From Spongospora subterranea f. sp. subterranea (lineage: Eukaryota): a stretch of DNA of 20,000 bases. The notes below the pieces were generated by a model. That model was given only the letters and a program-made list of their open reading frames with translations, was not told where the DNA came from and searched no databases. The position numbers and the translations under genes were made by a program. The stretch's first letter is position 1; every line of letters starts with the position of its first letter. The stretch covers positions 59,981 to 79,980 of the forward strand of contig JAUGWO010000111.1 of assembly GCA_049724395.1 (NCBI GenBank), in the 5' to 3' direction. Shown here piece by piece: positions 7,792-20,000 of the stretch.

Positions 7792-10554
7792 GTGAAAATA
7801 TTGGGAGATAGCGGGGCTGGCGCCAGTTTCGTTAGTTCATCCGTTGCTTCGACTTCCCAGTTAGAACGAACAAAACTAAAGGGAACAATCCGGGTTTCCT
7901 GTTTTACCGATCGCTTGGGAACGAATGTCAGTGAAAAATCGGCGACTGACGTTCAAATCGGGGACAGCTGTTTTTATTGGAATTTTTTTTTATTCTACCT
8001 CAATCACAGTTCGACGTTATTCTTGGTTATGATTGGTTACAGAAGTTCAATCCACAAATAGACTGGCGAACTGGCAAGTTGAGAGTTTCTCACGCTGAAT
8101 CCCCAGACATTCCGTTAGCATCAATGTCAGTCATCTCAGCAATGAAAAATTCCACTCCCATGCTTCCGGAACACTACCGTGATTTCACAGATGTCTTCTC
8201 AAAGAAAAAGGCTGATATACTACCGCCACATCGTCCCTATGATTGTTTCAATCGACCTACATGTTGGCTCCGCTCCCCCATTCGGACCAATTTACCGTCT
8301 ATCGCAAAAAGAAACGGAAGCGCTGCGTGAACACCTCAATGAGAACCTGCAGAAAGGGTTTATTCGACCATCCAAGTCATCTTGCAGTTCTCCAGTCATG
8401 TTTGTCCCCAAAAAGGACAAAACGCTTCGTTATGCGTCGACTTTTGTAAAATCAATGAGCTGACCATTATGAACAGATATCCATTACCATTGATTTCAGA
8501 CCTGTTATCACAGGCCTCGCGAGGGAAAATATTTACAAAAATTGATCTGCGAGGAGCCTATAACCTGGTACGCATCAAAGAAGGGCATGAGTGGAAGACG
8601 GCATTCCGTTGTGCTTTCGGATTGTATGAATACTTAGTTATGCCTTTCGGTTTAGCGAATGCCCCAGCCTGTTTTCAGCATTTTATGAACGATGTTTTTC
8701 GTGGTTTTATTGGAATTTTTATTGTCTCCTACCTGGACGATATATTGATATATTCTGATATAGAAGCTGATCACATAAATCACGTTCGCTCCGTCTTGGC
8801 AGTGTTACGGGAACACGGTCTGTACGTTAAAATGGAAAAATGTGCTTTTCACGTTTCTGAGGTTCAATTCTTGGGATATGTAATCTCCAACAAATGTGTC
8901 AAAATGGACCCAGCCCGTGTCAATGCTGTTAATTCGTGGCCCCAACCCCTCTCTGTCAAGGAACTTGAATCATTCTTAGGATTTGCAAATTTTTATCGAC
9001 AATTTATTTCCAATTTCGCGTCAACCTGTATGCCTTTATATGAACTAACACACAAACGTGCAACCTTCAAGTGGACTCCCCAATGTCAAATTTCCTTTGA
9101 TATGTTAAAACGCTCTTTCGTGTTTGCTCCAGTTCTAACTACGTTTAACCCTGTTCTGCCTATTATTGTAGAAACTGATGCATCGGACTTCGCCCTCGGT
9201 GCCGTTCTCTCGCAAGCCCACGATGATGGTGAGCACCCTATCGCATACTTTTCTAGAAGGCTCAACCCGTCTGAGCTAAACTACGAAATTTACGATAAGG
9301 AACTATTAGCAATCGTCGCTGCCTTTCAGAGGCATTATTTGGATGGCGCCGCGGAGCCTATCACTGTTTGGAGTGACCACAGAAACCTTCAGTGGTTTTT
9401 GAGCTCCAAAATACTGAACCGTCGCCAAGCACGTTGGTCTTTATTTCTGTCTGAGTTTTCCTTTTGCCTCAAACACAGACCAGGACATTTAAATGTAAAA
9501 GCAGACGCACTGTCCAGACGTTCGGATTATCATTGCGAATCTGCAGTGCCTCGCCCTGTCCTCCATTCACCCATATTCGTCAACAACATCAATTTTGTAA
9601 ACAATGCAGATCCCAGAGAGAATACGCTCATCAAAAAACATTCCGAGTTAGGACTAGGTAAATATGACCTTTCACACTTCTCTTTTCATGACGGAGATCT
9701 GTTTTTTCAACGACGAAAATATATTCACCAACACGAAGATCGTCTAAAACTTCTCATCACTAGGCACGATTCCACGCTAGCGGGCCACTTTGGCATTGCG
9801 AAAACCCAAGAACTCGTCTGCCGTGATTTCTGGTGGCCTGGAATGCATTCGATGATTCGCAATGATGTCAAGTCTTGCGATATTTGCGCCCGATCATAAA
9901 AACACCCCACACAAGCCATCGGGTATGCTCTTGCCACTACCGATTCCCCCCAGACCTTGGTCTTCAATATCGATGGATTTCATTGTCAAACTTCCAAAAT
10001 CACGCGGCTCCTGCTGAAATACGAGGTTCTATTTAATTCAATATGATGCCCTGTGTGAAGTGAGGTCCCATAACTGCTGAGCACCACGGAGTTTGTATTT
10101 ATATCTGACGAGATGTCAATAAATAACCACTGCTTTTCTCCATTAATAAAGGCCAGGCATTAAATTGTCTGAGAGATTTTGGGTACCTTAGCCCAGTTCG
10201 ACTACCGTCCTACCACTTTAGAAGCTCCGACTCCATTTTGGTGGTTGTCGACCGTTTCAGCAAAATGGCTCATTTTACTCCTTGTACGGAATCTTGTACT
10301 AGCACCAATCTCGCTTCTTTGATGTTTAACAATATCTTCAAATTTCATGGACTCCCTGACAGCATGATTTCAGATAGAGGTCCGCAATTTATTAGCAAAT
10401 TCTGGGAGCACCTATTGAAACAACTGAAAATTGACCGAAATCTATCGTTCTGCGCGCCACTCTGAATCAGATGGTCAGACGGAACGTGTCAACCAAATTT
10501 TAGAACAATATTTGCGTTGTTATGTTAATACCTCGCAAAATGACTGGAGTTCAC
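7792..10554 (+). pseudogene. pol: Ty3/gypsy Pol (protease, RT, RNase H, integrase), frameshifted and interrupted
   Basis: DSGA protease, FDVILGYDWL, KIDLRGAYN, YLVMPFGLANAP, YLDD, ETDASD, NYEIYDKELLAI, H...GHFG...[41 protein letters not shown]. Confidence 0.95.
10012..10223 (+). mobile_element. 212-bp insertion, probable solo LTR of a fourth family D (TGCTGAA...TTTAGAA) with 5-bp TSD GCTCC
   Basis: GCTCC at 10007-10011 and 10224-10228. Removing the insert and one TSD copy restores integrase LPKSRGSDSILVVVDRFSK. Ends resemble LTR C (TGTTGAA...CTAGAA). Confidence 0.82.
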
Positions 10555-10781: not shown

Positions 10782-10795
10782 GATTAACAGTCGAA
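10782..10795 (+). promoter_or_regulatory. Primer-binding site GATTAACAGTCGAA (tRNA-Asn anticodon-arm complement)
   Basis: Immediately follows the terminal CA of LTR A. Confidence 0.8.
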
Positions 10796-10821
10796 ACCGC
10801 TGACCAGTTACGCCCATCCTA

Positions 10822-10903: not shown

Positions 10904-11529
10904 TTCTAGAGAGAGGAGAGATCAGGCGAGCGAGGGAGGGAGCGGGAACGCGAGAGAGGGAGCGGGAACGCGAGAGAGAGAGGGAGCGGGAACGCGAGAG
11001 AGAGAGGAGAACGGAGAAGCGGGCGAGAGAGAGGGAGCGGGAACGCGAGAGAGAGGGAGCGGGAACGCGAGAGAGAGAGGGAGCGGGAACGCGAGAGAGA
11101 GAGAGGGAGCGGGAAGAGAGAGAGGGAGCGGGAACGCGAGAGAGAGAGGGAGCGGGAACGCGAGGAGAGAGGGAGCGGGAACGCGAGAGAGAGGGAGTGG
11201 GAACGATGTTGATTGGAAGAAGCAAATAGAAGAATGAGTTTATTAGAAAACGAGGGGCTCTGATATACAGAGCTAGATATTATTGTCTCAGTCGGAAAAG
11301 GGCGCGCGATTTCTCTGTCGGGAAAAAGGCGCGCTAATCGCGCGCCAAAATCCGTCACACGACAGAGGCTGCGCTACAGGGTTGCTCCTCAGGAGGCCGC
11401 TCATTAAGAGGCCGCGTCGAGTCTTCATCAATATCGGATGTACGTGACAGTGGGCCAATACGACCAGTTTGGGCCAGTACAGCCAATGGGCCAGTACGAC
11501 AGGTTGGCGACGTGGTTTGAACTTCAACA
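10904..11529 (-). mobile_element. Copia C 3' LTR, 626 bp (TGTTGA...CTAGAA)
   Basis: Direct repeat of 15969-16599. One difference seen in the 323-bp unique part. PPT TGAGGGGGCG at 11530-11539. Confidence 0.9.
10905..11205. repeat. GGGAGCGGGAACGC(GA)n minisatellite within the 3' LTR of copia C
   Basis: About 12 units with variable GA run. Also at ~15970-16275 and 13719-13860. Confidence 0.93.
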
Positions 11530-14500
11530 CGCCCCCTCAAACCATGTGCCTTGTTGGTCACCAATCTTTTGCTCAGTTTTGTGAATGTTGCGCCTGAAGT
11601 TGGTTTAGTGAAAATATCTGCGACCATCTCGGCTGTTGGCATGAACTGGACTTGAATCTGGTTGTTGTGAACCATCTGTCTCACGAAATGGTATTTTGCA
11701 TCAATGTGTTTTGTTCGCGCGTCGGTTCTGTTGTTGCCGCTGATAGATATGCATCCTTGGTTATCATCGTATATGACAGTTGCGGCTGGTTCTGGGCGCT
11801 CAAGTTCGAACAACAGTTGGCGGATCCATTTGGCTTCGCGTGACGCACCACATAATGCAATATACTCAGATTCAACAGACGATAAGGCTGTTGAGGGTTG
11901 CAATTTGGATTTCCAAGAGATTGGGGAACCATGAAAAGTGAAAACGAAACCAGTTGTGGATCTCCTCGTGTCCGGGTTACCGGCCCAGTCTGCGTCGCTG
12001 TAGCCATAGAGTCCGGCGGGATTCTTTGAAGAGCCTGCTGTAAATTTCAGGCCGTGGTCCGATGTCCCTGCCAAAAATCGGAGTACTCTCTGTGCTGCCG
12101 TCCAGTGCTGCCGCCCGGGGTTGCTTATAAATCTACATAAGGTTCCGACCGCGCATGCAATGTCGGGTCTTGTGGTTGTGGCTAACCAGTTTAAACTGCC
12201 GACAAGCTCAGAATATGGCACCAATTTCATGTTGTCTCGCTCTTGGTCGGTGGTAGGGCTCATGTTCGTACTGAGGTAGTATCCTGGTTGATGTGGAGTG
12301 TTGGCGGATTTGCAATGATTCATATTGAATCGAAGGAGTAATTCATCAACGTAGTCTTGCTGGTGTAAAAATATTGATCCTGTTGTCCCATCACGCAATA
12401 ACTGCATACCAAGAACACGACTGGGCGCGCCAAGATCGGTGACGTTCCATTTGGACTTGAAGTGATCCACTAATTCATCACAAAGAGTTGGATTATTATG
12501 GGCAATAATGATATCGTCGACATGAATGAGAACAATAGCATAGAAAGTGTCACGTCTGAGATGGTAAAGACAAGGATCAGCAATTGTTCTTCGAAAATGG
12601 AGCTTATTGACCAAGAAATCATCCAGCTGCTGATTCCAGATCATTCCCGCTTGTTTGAGACCGTAGAGAGCTTTCTGTAACTTGCAAACTAGATTTCCTT
12701 GACCAGGCTCGATGAAACCATCAGGCTGTTTCATGTAAATATCGCCGTCAATGTTACCGTTAAGGAATGCGCCCACGATGTCGATTTGACGAAGAAACAA
12801 GCCTTGATCGGCGGTTAGTGCCATGACGATACGAAATGATTCCGAATGTGCGACGGGAGAGAAAGTTTCACTGTAATCGATACCAGCACGTTGGGAGAAG
12901 CCTTTGATCACCAAACGGGCTTTGAACTTTCGAATACCACCGTCTCCGGTCAGATTAGGCTTGGTATTGAAGACCCATTTGCAGGCGATTGCTTTACGGT
13001 CTGGAGGTAGTTCTTGCAACGTCCATGTGTCAAATTCGAGCATCTGCTTGTATTCAACCTGCATAGCATCATACCAATGGCCAGCTTCAGGTCCGTTCAG
13101 GGCTTCTGGGACTGTTTGTGGTACGGTAACAGAAGAAATTGTGAGTGATGCGATGTCCGGTCTTGGCAATTTGATACATGTCGAGTCCAACTGCATTGTG
13201 TGATTGGCTTGATGTGCTTTCCACCATTCTCCTGGAGGTCGAGCGATTCTCTAGGACTGCGACGAACGACTACTGCCGGTTCGGGGTCTAAATCATTATT
13301 GTTGTCAGGCGAATAAGGTAATGATGCGTCCGATGTGCTGTCTGTGTCTTCAGGCTGGACAGGATCCAATTCATTGTCATTATTGCTGACATCTTCGGAT
13401 ATGATGGAATCAGCTGCATTGTTTTCATTCGAAATTTGAACATGGGGTTCCATCTCAGAGCGGAAGCAGCTTTCAAAACAGGGGGAGATGGTATTTCTGG
13501 AATCTGAACTTTCTCTTTGAAATCCGTAATCAAAGGAGTATTCGTCGAACTCGACATCTCGACTGGAATATTCTTTTTGGGATATGGGATCGTACAGCAA
13601 ATAAGCCTTTTGATTCTGTGTGTAGCCAATGTGAATTAGTTTCTGTGCTCGAGGCTGTATCTTTTTCCGTTCGTTGGACTGAAGCAATCTGTAGGCGACA
13701 CAACCGAATGCGACAACCGAACGCGAGAGAGAGAGGGAGCGGGAACGCGAGAGAGAGGGAGCGGGACGAGAGAGAGAGGGAGCGGGAACGCGAGAGAGAG
13801 GGAGCGGGAACGCGAGAGAGAGGGAGCCTGAACGCGAGAGAGAGAGGGAGTGGGAACGATGTTCTAAGGTAGTTAAGATTCGGAACCTGTTTGAACAAGA
13901 CTTCATACGGAGTAACTCGGTCTGGTAACGTCGAGTGGGGGTCGTCGATTGTATATATGAACAGCTACTTGTACAGCCCAAGCAAAACATTGCTGGGGCA
14001 ACTTCGAATGTGATAGTAGACAAAGGGCAATATCAGTCAATGTTCGATTAAGCCTTTCAGCCATGCCATTCGATTGTGAGTTTCCCGGGACTGTCCTTCG
14101 GTGATGAATGCCTTGAAGGTCTAGCCAATCACGACACTCTTTCGACATGTATTCGCCTCCGTTGTCTGATTGAAAATTGCGGATAGTTGTGCTGTGAAGG
14201 TTGTTGAAATGTCGAATGAACTTCTTGAGGTGCTCGAACTGCTCAGATTTGTTTCTCAAACAGGCAATTGTGCAGAATCGGCTGTAAGCATCAATGTATG
14301 TGACAAAGTACTTGGAACCGTCTATGCCAGGGGAAGAAAATGGGCCCATGAGGTCGCTTACGATGAGTTCACCCGGAGTGATTTGATGGTGTGTGGTATT
14401 CAAGAACGGTCCTTTTGACATTTTCCCCATCACGCATGGTTCACAAAAGTGTAATTGCTTGGGAGAAGGTTCTAGTCGAATTCCGTAGCGCGCATCCTTA

Positions 14501-15760
14501 CTCAAATTCGATATTTCCTTGTTGCTGGTATGGCCTAACCTTGCGTGCCATAGTGACAGGGGAAGGGCAACGTCATGTCGGACCGCAAAAGTCGCCGCAT
14601 GGTCTGATGATCGGATAGAATTTGAATCCAGTCTGTACAGGTTGTCCTTATCTTTTCGAATCCTTGCAAGTATGTTTCCAACGGGAGCGGTGAAATCATG
14701 AGAGTGGAAGATAGTCATGTGTTCGCCATCGATCAAAAACTTCATCCCTGATTCTGCTGCTTGGCCGGGAGAAAAGAGGTTTTTCCCGAGGTCCGGAACC
14801 GCCAAAACATTCTCAAGTGGAATTGACCTTCCCTGTACGCGCAAATTGCAGTTACCAGATCCCAACTGAAGGGATGGAAGTGTTGTCACCCAGTTGAATT
14901 TCTGGGTTCAGACTTGCGCTTCGGAATTGCGATAAGATCTGACGGTCAAATGTCATGTGGTTGGAACAGCCAGTATCTACATGCCAGGCCCTGGACTTGA
15001 TAAATGAAGCTTGAGAGGCATAATGGTAGTTTTGAACTTGTCCCTGTTTATTATGTCTCGGCTGCCAGCTGCTAGGGCGAAGCTCAGGGTGTTGTGCATA
15101 ACATTGGTCATCCGTATGGCCAAGGTGTGGGTGAACTTTGCATCGACGCTTCTTGCCAGCAATGTTTGCTTGTGTAGAGGCAATATCTTGGCCTTGACGA
15201 GCTTCTTCGTTTAGCAGCAGGGAGGTGATCGTGACTAGTGAAATATGATCAAAGTCCTGGCAGTCTAAGGCAGTAGCAACTGAGTGGAAACGGCTATCGA
15301 GGTTGCAAACAACGAGTGCTGAAATTAATTTTTCTGGTATCTCGATGCCTGCACCTTGGAGGTCTCGGGCTCGAGATTCGACTCGGCCTATAAATTCTTG
15401 CACTGGTTGCCCGTCTTGCATGCAGGTAACCCATTGGCGCAACTTGACGACAACTGAAGAGAGTGATTTGCGCTGGTAGATGTTATGGAGTTTGACCCAA
15501 TACGCGTGAGCAGAGGTTTCAGAGAGTAAATGACGGAGTACCGAGTCACCCACGTTCAGTTCGATCACACCCCGGGTTTTCGTATCGGTACGGCTCGACG
15601 TCGTGTCAGTTCGCGGTTCGACAGGGTCAAATGTTGCTGGATTATAGGAGATTGATATATCATAATCCTTGTCCTGTAATATGGCCATCATACGACGCTT
15701 CCAGATAGGGAAATCGTCGGATCCTTCGAGCTTATGGATGTTATAGACCGTGGACATCAT
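11355..15760 (-). pseudogene. gag-pol: Copia C gag-pol, broken by frameshifts (~14865, ~13940, ~13240) and an insertion at 13711-13861
   Basis: Gag (KLEGSDDFPIWK), WHVDTGCSNHM protease, LWHARLGH/CEPC, SDLMGP/SDNGGEY/NGMAERLNRT integrase, and an open 613-aa RT-RNase H (KARLV, LYGLKQA, HVDD, YSDADWAG, KHID). Confidence 0.95.
13711..13861 (-). repeat. ~150-bp copy of the LTR C minisatellite inserted in copia C integrase
   Basis: Interrupts LNYLRT|FGCVAY. Starts with the same AACATCGTTCCCACTCCC as the LTR array. Confidence 0.88.
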
Positions 15761-15777
15761 GATGGATGTATATACAG

Positions 15778-15917
15778 TGTACACCTAAATGTATATACAA
15801 ATGTACACCTAAGTGTATATACAAATGTACACCTAAGTGTATATACAAATGTACACCTAAGTGTATATACAAATGTACACCTAAGTGTATATACAAATGT
15901 ACACCTAAGTGTATATA
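15778..15917. repeat. 24-bp tandem repeat in the copia C leader (TGTACACCTAAGTGTATATACAAA, ~6 units)
   Basis: Near-perfect units between the PBS and the gag ATG. Confidence 0.95.
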
Positions 15918-15954
15918 GAATAGCACACTTGAGGTACTATGCAGCTAACAGAGC

Positions 15955-15968
15955 TGGGACTCTTAATC
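15955..15968 (-). promoter_or_regulatory. Primer-binding site of copia C, GATTAAGAGTCCCA (complement of tRNA-Lys CUU anticodon arm)
   Basis: Plus strand TGGGA-CTCTTAA-TC. Begins where homology between the two C LTRs ends. Confidence 0.8.
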
Positions 15969-16599
15969 TTCTAGAGAGAGGAGAGATCAGGCGAGCGAGG
16001 GAGGGAGCGGGAACGCGAGGAGAGGAGCGGGAACGCGAGAGAGAGGGAAGCGGGAAGAGAGAGGGAGCGGGAACGCGAGAGAGAGAGGGAGCGGGAACGC
16101 GAGAGAGAGGGAGCGGGAACGCGAGAGAGAGGGAGCGGGAACGCGAGAGAGAGAGGGAGCGGGAACGCGAGAGAGGGAGCGGGAACGCGAGAGAGAGGGA
16201 GCGGGAACGCGAGAGAGAGGGAGCGGGAACGGAGAGAGGAGGGAGCGGGAACGCGAGAGAGAGGGAGTGGGAACGATGTTGATTGGAAGAAGCAAATAGA
16301 AGAATGAGTTTATTAGAAAACGAGGGGCTCTGATATACAGAGCTAGATATTATTGTCTCAGTCGGAAAAGGGCGCGCGATTTCTCTGTCGGGAAAAAGGC
16401 GCGTTAATCGCGCGCCAAAATCCGTCACACGACAGAGGCTGCGCTACAGGGTTGCTCCTCAGGAGGCCGCTCATTAAGAGGCCGCGTCGAGTCTTCATCA
16501 ATATCGGATGTACGTGACAGTGGGCCAATACGACCAGTTTGGGCCAGTACAGCCAATGGGCCAGTACGACAGGTTGGCGACGTGGTTTGAACTTCAACA
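15969..16599 (-). mobile_element. Copia C 5' LTR, 631 bp
   Basis: Direct repeat of 10904-11529. Length difference lies in the minisatellite. Confidence 0.9.
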
Positions 16600-17368
16600 T
16601 ATTCTTCACTAGGCCTTCGTATTCGTTATCGATCGCCTTCTTCCACTGATGCCAAAAAGGATTGTTTGGCTCCATTGCCTGAGGGAGAGTAAAAGGGATA
16701 GCAATCTCATTAGCTTTCTCAAGGATTCCTGTGTCGGACGTGGTCATTGCAACACGCCACCAATCACCAGGAATACGACGACTTCGAGCTGACTTGCGAA
16801 TTTGACTAGGTAGCGGATCATGCTGCTCTGATGTTGTGGAGGGCTCCGATTCTATATACGCTTCTGACATGGGAATAATATCCTGTGATAATTGATCATG
16901 CTCTGAACCGGATTGGATTGGAAGGTCTGCACATGGAGAAGACGAGTCTGGTGAACATGCAGTTGATGCCTCGATGATGTCTTCGTCAAAAAATATAGTT
17001 TCATCATCGATACCAACAGATGGTTCGTTTTCAGGAAACTTTCCTTCGTTAAAGTGAGCATCTGAATATCGAGCGGTGAGCGTGCGATTTTTCTCTGGAT
17101 CGAAGAAATGATATCCTTTTTGCTTGGTTAAGTATCCAATAAATATGCATTTGGTCATTTTTGGTTGAAGCTTGCGATGGAGTTGATTTGGTTCATGAAC
17201 ATGAGCAATGCAACCGAATGTGCGGAGGTAGTCAAGTTTTGGTTTCTCGCCGAACCATGCTTCGTATGGTGTCATGTGCTCGAATAGCGCTGAGTGTGGT
17301 CTTCGATTTGTCAAATGAACGGCTGTATTGATGGCAAAGGACCAGAATTCTTTATTGAGGCCAGCTTG
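16600..17368 (-). pseudogene. pol: Copia pol fragment (integrase C-terminus, linker, start of RT), related to B, possibly family A
   Basis: FWSFAINTAVHLTNRRPH...TPYEAWFGEKPKLDYLRTFGC...KCIFIGY...WKKAIDNEYEGLVKN, open throughout and bounded by LTR C and LTR B. Family assignment is inference. Confidence 0.88.
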
Positions 17369-17597: not shown

Positions 17598-17611
17598 GAT
17601 TAACAGTCGAA
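17598..17611 (+). promoter_or_regulatory. Primer-binding site GATTAACAGTCGAA (tRNA-Asn anticodon-arm complement)
   Basis: Same 14-mer as in family A, although sequence on both sides is unrelated between A and B. Confidence 0.82.
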
Positions 17612-17637
17612 TTGCCACCTCATCAGGCCCCTACGTA

Positions 17638-17789
17638 TACACTTCAGTGTATCTTCTCACCACTGCACACATACACCTCAGTGTATATTTCTACCAGCTT
17701 GTACATACACCTTAGTGTATCTTTTTCACCACTGCATACATACACCTCAGTGTATATTTTCTACCAGTTCATACGTACACTTTAGTGTA
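17638..17789 (+). repeat. 34-35-bp leader repeat of copia B copy 2
   Basis: Same array as 4112-4263. Confidence 0.88.
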
Positions 17790-17848
17790 TATTTCTCGTT
17801 ATTCCCACACTTTCTCTTCTCCGCACCTCTACTTCAACTTCAGTTGCG

Positions 17849-20000
17849 ATGAAAGAAATTTTTCAGACGATTCAAAAGTTCTCCGGCAAAGACACCGATG
17901 ACCTGTTACTATGGCAACAAAAGGTAGTGATGTATCTATCGACAAAGGATCTGGAATTATGCGTTGAGAAAGACCCTGATGCTAACGCGACTCCGGACCA
18001 ACTACGCAAAGACAAGAAAGCTAAGTCCATTTTATGCAGCTGCATTGATGACGTGATTGTCGGCGCAATAATGAAGGAAACAACGGCACACAAGGCGTGG
18101 GCGCTTCTTGAAAGCCTTTACCGCAAGAAATCACGATCCACCAGAACCAGACTCATCGCCGAGTTTTGGAACTGCACAAAGAATGACGCCCCGATGGCCA
18201 CTTACATTGCCACCCTTCAAGTTTTACAGTCAAAGCTCCGCGCTATCGGAAAGGATATGACAGATGAAGACATGACTGATCGCCTACTATCAGGCCTCCC
18301 ATCTTGTTTTGACGCATTCACCGTCACGTTGGATACACTCAGCGAAGTCAAGTTTGCCGCTACTGCCGCGTCGCTCATCAATTTTGAAGCCCAACTCGAG
18401 CACAGGTCTCGTGAAGTATCGGCAGTTTCCATCCTGCCTCGAGCATGCGCTACCTCAGTCAAACGGCATTCTCGCTGCAGCTATCACAACTCCAACTCGC
18501 ATGACAATGCCCACTGCTGGGCACAACATCCCGAGCTACGTCCGAAACATTTATTCACTAAACAGTCTGCCTCAGTCTATCCCCTCCAACGATCAAAAGT
18601 AGCTCCACTCTCCCAACAATCAGCTCATGAACACAGTGACGAATGGCTTCTTGACTGTTGCTGCTCAATGCACATGTGTCCCGAATCCTCTACCTTGCAG
18701 GAAGTTCTGCCCGATTCCGATCCCGTGACAGTTACTATGGCAAATAATGAGAGTCTTTGCTCAACTGCAACCGGCAGCAGCAAAATAGGCACTGGAAATA
18801 CCATCATCGATATTTCACCGGTATTACACATACCCGGTCTTTCCAATAATCTTCTCTCCATTGGACAAGCAACTTCGGACGGACTATCGTTTTTGTTCAA
18901 GGGAGACTACTGCAAAATATTCAACATCGACGGTAAACTTGTCGGCAAAGTTAAGAAGGATGCCAACAACTTGTACCCGTTCCCTGATCATCGTAACATA
19001 CCTCATCTACCGTTCGTTGCCTCATCTATTGCGACAAGCGTTAATCTGCATCAACTCTGGCACAACCGCCTCGGCCACATCAACAATGCCGATCTCGACG
19101 TAATCCTACAAGGCATCAATGGCGGTGAAAAGATCATACCCAATCAACGTTTCGGAGCTCTGCAATGGCTGTTTGATGGGGAAGATGCCAAGAGGCAAGA
19201 TAGCGCGTTTTTCCAAATAACTCCACCAGCTCACCCCTCGAAATCGTTCACAGCGATATTTCCGGACCTTTTCCAGTTGATGGCATCCATTCTAGATCAA
19301 GATACTACATCACATTCCTAGATCAGCACACAAGGTATACCGTCGTTTATCTACTTCGAAGGAAATCCGAGGCTTTTAGCAATCAAAACGTTCATCAGAA
19401 TGGTCAATACTCTTTTCTTGGACAAGGGCTTCTCAGTAAAATACTTTCAAAGCGACAATGGCGGCGAATATACTTCCAACGACTGTCAGGCGCTGTTTCA
19501 AGAACTGGGCATTGTGCATAGAAAAATTGTTCCGTATCAATCAGAGCAAATGGGATGATCGAAAGACTGAATCGCACAATCATGGACTGCGCAGAGAGCA
19601 TACGATTCGGTGCAAACTTAAAGCAAAACTTCTGGACAGCCTCTGTTTGTACAGCCGTTTATCTCCTCAATCGCAGGCCCCACAGTCACCTATCGGAACA
19701 CATGTCTCCATTCGAAGCCTGGCACAATAAGAAACCAGACCTAATGCACCTGCGAACGTTCGGTTGCGATGCGTACATCCACCTTCCAAACCAGCTGCAT
19801 CGCAAGCTACAACCAAGAAGCTCAATGGTAACATTTATCGGGTACACCATGGAACAGAAAGGTTATCTCTTTTATTGCAGCTCTACCAACAAAATTACTG
19901 CCACTCGGTTCACTGACGCTGTCTTCGACGAGAACTCTTTCACACGGGAAACCTTGGACCAGATTGATGACAACACTATCCAATTACACCTTGGCGACAT
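17849..20000 (+). pseudogene. gag-pol: Copia family B gag-pol, copy B2 (Gag, PR, IN), small indels after ~19150, runs off the window
   Basis: Near-identical to 4323 onward. Indels lie mostly in homopolymers and may be sequencing errors. Confidence 0.93.

Follow-up and report, generated by a model that had tools for sequence, protein, structure and literature searches.

A Ty1/copia retrotransposon family in Spongospora subterranea with a probable primer-binding site for a tRNA-Lys(CUU) half

Named members of the genus Hemivirus use one half of the initiator tRNA-Met to prime reverse transcription. Priming in Hemivirus is described as starting from nucleotide (nt) 40 of the tRNA (PMC1181622), and a review attributes the cutting of the tRNA used by Ty5 to host RNase P (PMC5371799); our literature search for a primary study of the cutting enzyme found none. 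A half-Met primer is reported for Osser, and half-Met and half-Ile primers are both on record in the same source (Neumann 2019, PMC6317226). The Copia/Helenus elements of rust fungi are described with anticodon-loop primers from tRNA-Tyr, tRNA-Ile, initiator tRNA-Met and either tRNA-Asp or tRNA-Asn-GTT (both are named in the text), and on the tree presented there the primer changed at least five times (Kojima 2024, PMC10886601). For the FunCo1 clade of fungal Copia elements, Donnart et al. (2017, PMC5445492) give the primer-binding site (PBS) as ATTAAGAGTCT and describe it as complementing an internal part of tRNA-Lys; the motif is absent from six text supplements of that paper.

The DNA analysed here, a stretch of 20,000 nucleotides that we call the window, consists of nested LTR retrotransposons, and Pfam recognises copia-type domains (gag, protease, integrase and RVT_2) in several of its blocks. 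The copia elements discussed below are assigned to families A, B and C. Family C is a multi-copy Ty1/copia retrotransposon that lies on the minus strand of the window, where it is made up as follows.

10904..11529, minus strand: family C 3' LTR, in agreement with the 5' LTR at 329/330 bases outside the GA-rich repeat
about 11530-11540, minus strand: family C polypurine tract, directly before the 3' LTR
11463..15760, minus strand: family C gag-protease-integrase-RT-RNase H region, in copia order
13719..13863, minus strand: piece of the C LTR repeat inside the family C coding region
15942..15954, minus strand: extension of the family C site; would pair with tRNA-Lys nt 25 to 13, leaving nt 26 bulged; includes AGAGC (15950-15954)
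15955..15968, minus strand: probable core primer-binding site of family C, complementing tRNA-Lys(CUU) nt 40 to 27; begins directly behind the 5' LTR
15969..16599, minus strand: family C 5' LTR, 631 bp, with a TG start, an AA end and GA-rich tandem repeats near its inner end

Family C has two direct LTRs with a polypurine tract before the 3' LTR, the Ty1/copia domain order and an RVT_2-type reverse transcriptase (RT; Pfam), and the near-identity of its LTRs outside the GA-rich repeat indicates that the family is young. The termini of Ty1/copia LTRs are usually, though not universally, TG...CA, and ends other than TG/CA have been described in plants; the family C LTRs end TG...AA, both in the two window copies and in public contigs. 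The coding region of the window copy is broken by frame changes near 14860, 13900-13700 and 13300-13235. No target-site duplication was found around this copy, whose two flanks differ and belong to other elements, and the copy is likely rearranged. About 145 bp of the GA-rich LTR repeat lies within the family's own coding region, which may reflect recombination, a template switch or an assembly chimera. Between the primer site and gag the C leader carries tandem 24-mers (15778-15921), and tandem repeats are present in the leader of each copia family (480-975; 4100-4260; 17640-17790), as 19-mers in A and in degenerate form in B.

The rest of the window includes a degraded gypsy element (about 6800-10550) with DUF4939, RVP_2, RVT_1, RNase H and integrase domains, most of whose listed relatives carry a chromodomain family, and a minus-strand fragment of a further copia integrase region (16600-17367) that resembles family B at about 69% across 170 bp. 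Positions 3808-4083 recur at 6039-6313 as a 276-bp inverted copy (99.6-100%), and positions 4078-6474 recur at 17604-20000 as a 2.4-kb direct duplicate of family B internal sequence (99.3%). The locus has either undergone extensive rearrangement or is in part a chimera.

On the minus strand, the alignment of the C LTRs at 16599-15969 and 11529-10904 runs as far as 15969 and 10904, where an earlier note on this DNA had placed the end of their homology, and the two LTRs have one further base in common, at 15968/10903, which is the single ambiguous base of that note. Public contigs on 15930-16010 came from two of the four runs, X5 and X12, which belong to different studies; none came from X17 or X2, and the site is outside the coverage of X1 and X15. 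One X5 contig begins exactly at 15969, where the summed depth rises in a step, about 14,700 before it and 24,100 after; unrelated flanks in the same run join before 15969 in one contig and before 15968 in two, and the other single loose contig ends fall before 15965 and 15975. These contigs favour the assignment of the shared base 15968 to the primer site, where it most likely belongs, and not to the LTR; AA is then the end of the C LTR, with the primer site following at once.

The 14 nucleotides of the core site are kept in other copies of family C. In X5 and X12, no difference is listed within 15942-15968 at the 1% level, and the only listed substitution (15974) and the only listed gap (15973) both lie inside the C LTR. 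A difference-free X5 contig over 15932-15973 has a depth of 5,208, compared with 23-37 for flank-specific contigs, which is a rough hint of many identical family C copies, given that depth is not copy number and that X5 is possibly the source sample of the window. Some low-depth X12 contigs carry unplaced differences (6 in 76 bases in record 2). In one X12 contig a family A LTR begins inside the C primer site, at 15959, suggesting that family A inserted there. Soil and rhizosphere metagenomes are among the public datasets that contain the DNA of the window.

On the plus strand, positions 15950-15968 read AGAGC TGGGACTCTTAATC, the sequence and coordinates from which the earlier note had proposed a tRNA-Lys(CUU) primer. 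The 14-mer is identical to nt 27-40, the anticodon arm, of a tRNA-Lys(CTT) gene called by ARAGORN (L081); it also occurs in L082, a tRNA-Lys-like copy that has no ARAGORN call, and is contained in a published human LysCTT primer (PMC6932762). In both L081 and L082, AGAGC stands at nt 21-25 and is followed by one extra base at nt 26, so that the proposed 14/14 match, with AGAGC across a 1-nt bulge, holds for real sequences. The full 17-nt arm was found in two viral stretches only, again L081 and L082. Within the window the 14-mer is unique even when up to two mismatches are allowed, a generic anticodon-arm pattern fits 42 of 40,000 positions (about 1e-3 per site), and an anticodon-arm site is present at all 4 of the 4 5'-LTR ends. 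A search of the window for tRNA genes found none. Priming from the 3' (CCA) end of a tRNA is rejected for family C, whose site lacks the TGG start after the LTR that goes with this mode.

The complementarity is predicted to continue from the anticodon arm into the D arm, further than the earlier note had it. The Lys pattern fetched 120 loci, of which 113 are tRNA-Lys(CTT) genes, all of them viral or prophage genes and not those of the host. Set against nt 13-25 of the commonest form among these (62 of the 113 genes), positions 15942-15954 pair at 13/13, by 9 Watson-Crick and 4 G-U pairs, a result reached by 1 of 39,976 13-mers of the window, namely the extension alone. The extension pairs at 13/13 with 78 of the 113 fetched genes. 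The search patterns fixed nt 18-25 and 30-40, and at nt 13-17, which they left free, 78 of the 113 genes pair at 5/5. Against the type of D loop found in L082 the extension pairs at 12/13, as do 2 of the 39,976 window 13-mers. The fetched viral genes are mostly unlike the C site at nt 27-31. Taken over its whole length, the predicted pairing of the C leader covers tRNA-Lys nt 13-40 with nt 26 left out, 27 of 28 bases.

Families A and B carry sites of the same register as the C site, each matching the arm of another tRNA.

986..999, minus strand: a further primer site of family A, also of the tRNA-Asn(GUU) arm
10782..10795, plus strand: family A primer site, complementing tRNA-Asn(GUU) nt 40 to 27
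17598..17611, plus strand: family B primer site, tRNA-Asn(GUU) arm

The assignment to tRNA-Asn(GTT) rests on the 120 loci fetched with that arm, 112 of which are tRNA-Asn genes according to ARAGORN, and it agrees with the earlier view that family C had a different tRNA from A and B, Lys(CUU) as against Asn(GUU). The family A site seems to run on into a D-arm-like stretch (960-985, 10796-10820), and the B site does not. Compared with the 120 tRNA-Asn loci, which are not the host's, the A extension pairs at best at 12/13 (mean 7.3) and the B extension at best at only 9/13; the extended family A pattern had no match in viral contigs. The family A LTR ends in CA and the B 5' LTR probably in TA (17597). 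In the other B copy (1710-1712), an in-frame His codon belonging to the target gene also begins with the CA that follows, which is maybe not part of the LTR.

The proteins nearest to family C are unnamed environmental sequences at 61-72% identity, those nearest to family B are at 88% and 60%, and B and C are 48% identical to each other in the RT-RNase H region. A quick maximum-likelihood tree was built from 52 rows (34 proteins and 18 of 80 loci; no bootstrap), from which loci were dropped if their RT segment was short or no site had been called in them. In this tree B and C fall into one clade of 24 rows (SH-aLRT 100) with an inner branching that is not settled, and the only named member of the clade is a protein of Plasmodiophora brassicae. 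Because B (Asn) and C (Lys) share this one RT clade, the primer can fairly be taken, on these sequences, to have changed at least once within it; C may have left Asn, or both families another primer. The earlier note had held that the register was kept while the lineage swapped its tRNA: the 3' end at nt 40 and the common RT clade of B and C bear out that much, and with the open inner branching and the 48% identity of B and C they do not extend to C as the family that switched. Primer identity, which the same note had proposed to map on an RT phylogeny, could be mapped to the extent that B and C form one clade; among the 18 loci in the tree, none with a readable primer site lies inside it.

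The metagenome copia loci are distant, at 34-43% identity among the matches listed, and a Lys site occurs in 0 of 80 of them, again among the matches listed, and in none of 3 copia loci from genome collections, all likewise distant; the viral contigs held no close relatives with readable primer sites. Of the 43 distant loci with enough upstream DNA among the matches listed, 10 have a half-initiator-Met site, 10 a 3'-end site and 1 (L017) an Ile-type site. L025 has one further half-initiator-Met site in a variant form, the site at the LTR end of L060 is of the 3'-end type, and an arm-like match in L024 was not counted, as no confirmed LTR end adjoins it. The site at L017:107-120, in a distant metagenomic copia element, has the shape of a complement to a tRNA-Ile anticodon arm, as in Bianca, and is preceded by TA. 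Copia RT sequences in three bacterial metagenome-assembled genomes (L085-L087) are probably eukaryotic contamination.

We consider it very likely that positions 15968-15942 are the primer-binding site for a tRNA-Lys(CUU) 5' half that ends at nt 40. The LTR boundary, the complementarity, the register and the conservation among copies can all be read directly in the DNA; the steps that follow are modelled on copia and Ty5. Host tRNA-Lys(CUU) would anneal to the element RNA, the long duplex would open the D and anticodon arms of the tRNA, the tRNA would be cut after nt 40, and the reverse transcriptase would extend the new 3'-OH into the LTR to give minus-strand DNA. Families A and B would go through the same process with tRNA-Asn(GUU), and the lineage would have swapped its primer at least once with the register kept. 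The identity of the cutter is the least certain step; by analogy, host RNase P is a plausible first guess, though one that we stop just short of endorsing. The earlier note had gone further and taken the sites to imply a general anticodon-stem cleavage activity, which we treat as possible and not as implied: sequence cannot tell which nuclease cuts, or whether one general activity is at work, and the C site by itself reveals no new activity.

For the cutting step only, the tRNA might instead be cut after nt 40 inside the particle, by the RNase H of the element or at the edge of the duplex, in place of host RNase P or stress nucleases, an alternative that we regard as rather unlikely. The register would suit it, staying at nt 40 for Lys and Asn here and for Met and one Ile-type site in the distant loci, as would the long duplex, which would leave nt 41 onward unpaired. 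RNase H, however, normally requires an RNA-DNA hybrid. The same alternative is opposed by family B, which has no extension when set against the fetched Asn genes (best 9/13), and by the ascription of the Ty5 cut to host RNase P in a review (PMC5371799). As to which tRNA is recruited, a relative such as tRNA-Lys(UUU) could enter by G-U wobble at position 34, the AAG of the site needing a single wobble to pair with a UUU anticodon, but the perfect 14/14 complementarity of the site to known Lys(CTT) arms makes such a substitution very improbable.

Two further readings would do away with the tRNA altogether. In a Tf1-like scheme of self-priming, the 5' end of the transcript would pair with the site and be cut off as the primer, and an 8-nt complement of the site is indeed present at LTR position 120-127. 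It is 8 nt long, the longest in the LTR (about 0.07 expected by chance), it lies upstream of a TATA-like box near LTR position 260 and hence likely outside the transcript, and it would leave 27 nt of tRNA complementarity unexplained; its position upstream of the box speaks against self-priming for family C, and the probability that we would still grant the idea is slight. The site might also have arisen by chance or through rearrangement of the nested locus, as broken elements and inversions lie nested in the window and the C copy is without a target-site duplication. Against this stand the presence of the LTR-site junction in contigs of two studies (X5 and X12) and the rarity of both parts of the match (arm pattern, about 1e-3 per site; extension, 1/39,976), which leave an accidental origin scarcely credible.

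Returning to a tRNA-Lys(CUU) half as the primer, we put forward one bolder conjecture, which as a whole is doubtful: that the element RNA itself sets the cut. Its 27/28 pairing with nt 13-40 would unfold the tRNA and present the nt 40/41 bond to a nuclease, any tRNA could then be recruited by rewriting a short site, this clade of environmental copia elements, separate from FunCo1, would have made its own independent moves between Asn and Lys halves, and its integrase would accept LTR ends other than CA (AA in C, likely TA in B). Were this so, the presence of all three families in a single host would offer a natural test set for the maker of half-tRNA primers.

The Hemivirus-type elements (Drosophila copia, yeast Ty5, Osser and 1731) are among the systems close to family C, which has in common with them a half-tRNA 3'-OH at nt 40 (predicted in C), a site that abuts the 5' LTR and the Ty1/copia domain order; it differs from them in matching Lys(CUU) where they use initiator tRNA-Met, and in an LTR that ends in AA and not CA (PMC1181622, PMC5371799). 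In the strict sense of the genus, which asks for half of the initiator tRNA-Met, family C is not a Hemivirus, as its site matches Lys(CUU). The FunCo1 site ATTAAGAGTCT agrees with the C site at 10/11 bases, a comparison made on the PBS description, and no FunCo1 sequence was recognised among the fetched proteins; FunCo1 is reported almost only from Pezizomycotina, whereas the nearest relatives of C are the unnamed environmental proteins at 61-72%, and the FunCo1 description gives no register, cut or extension (PMC5445492). Family C would lengthen by one the list of copia families whose primer is a tRNA-Lys half, and it probably lies outside the fungal FunCo1 group. The rust-fungus Copia/Helenus elements resemble the present families in that several anticodon-loop tRNA primers are used in one genome, but they belong to another host group and tRNA-Lys is not among the anticodon-loop primers described for them (PMC10886601). 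Bianca, with its half tRNA-Ile, has a non-Met internal primer as C does, from another tRNA and in another clade (PMC6317226). LTR families of Candida albicans have internal tRNA-Arg(UCU) sites, which are likewise non-Met and likewise differ in tRNA and clade, and these families match the same tRNA either extensively or over a short length, much as C and, it seems, A have long matches and B a short one (PMC4139406). The production of half-tRNA primers is thinly supported in the papers surveyed here, and a family that is young, has many copies and carries a 27-base site would be a usable model for it. An internal tRNA-Lys site (PMC5445492) and the repeated switching of anticodon-arm primers (PMC10886601) are already in print; set beside them, the 27-base extent of the C site, the presence of both a Lys and an Asn version within a single RT clade and an LTR end other than CA are modestly new.
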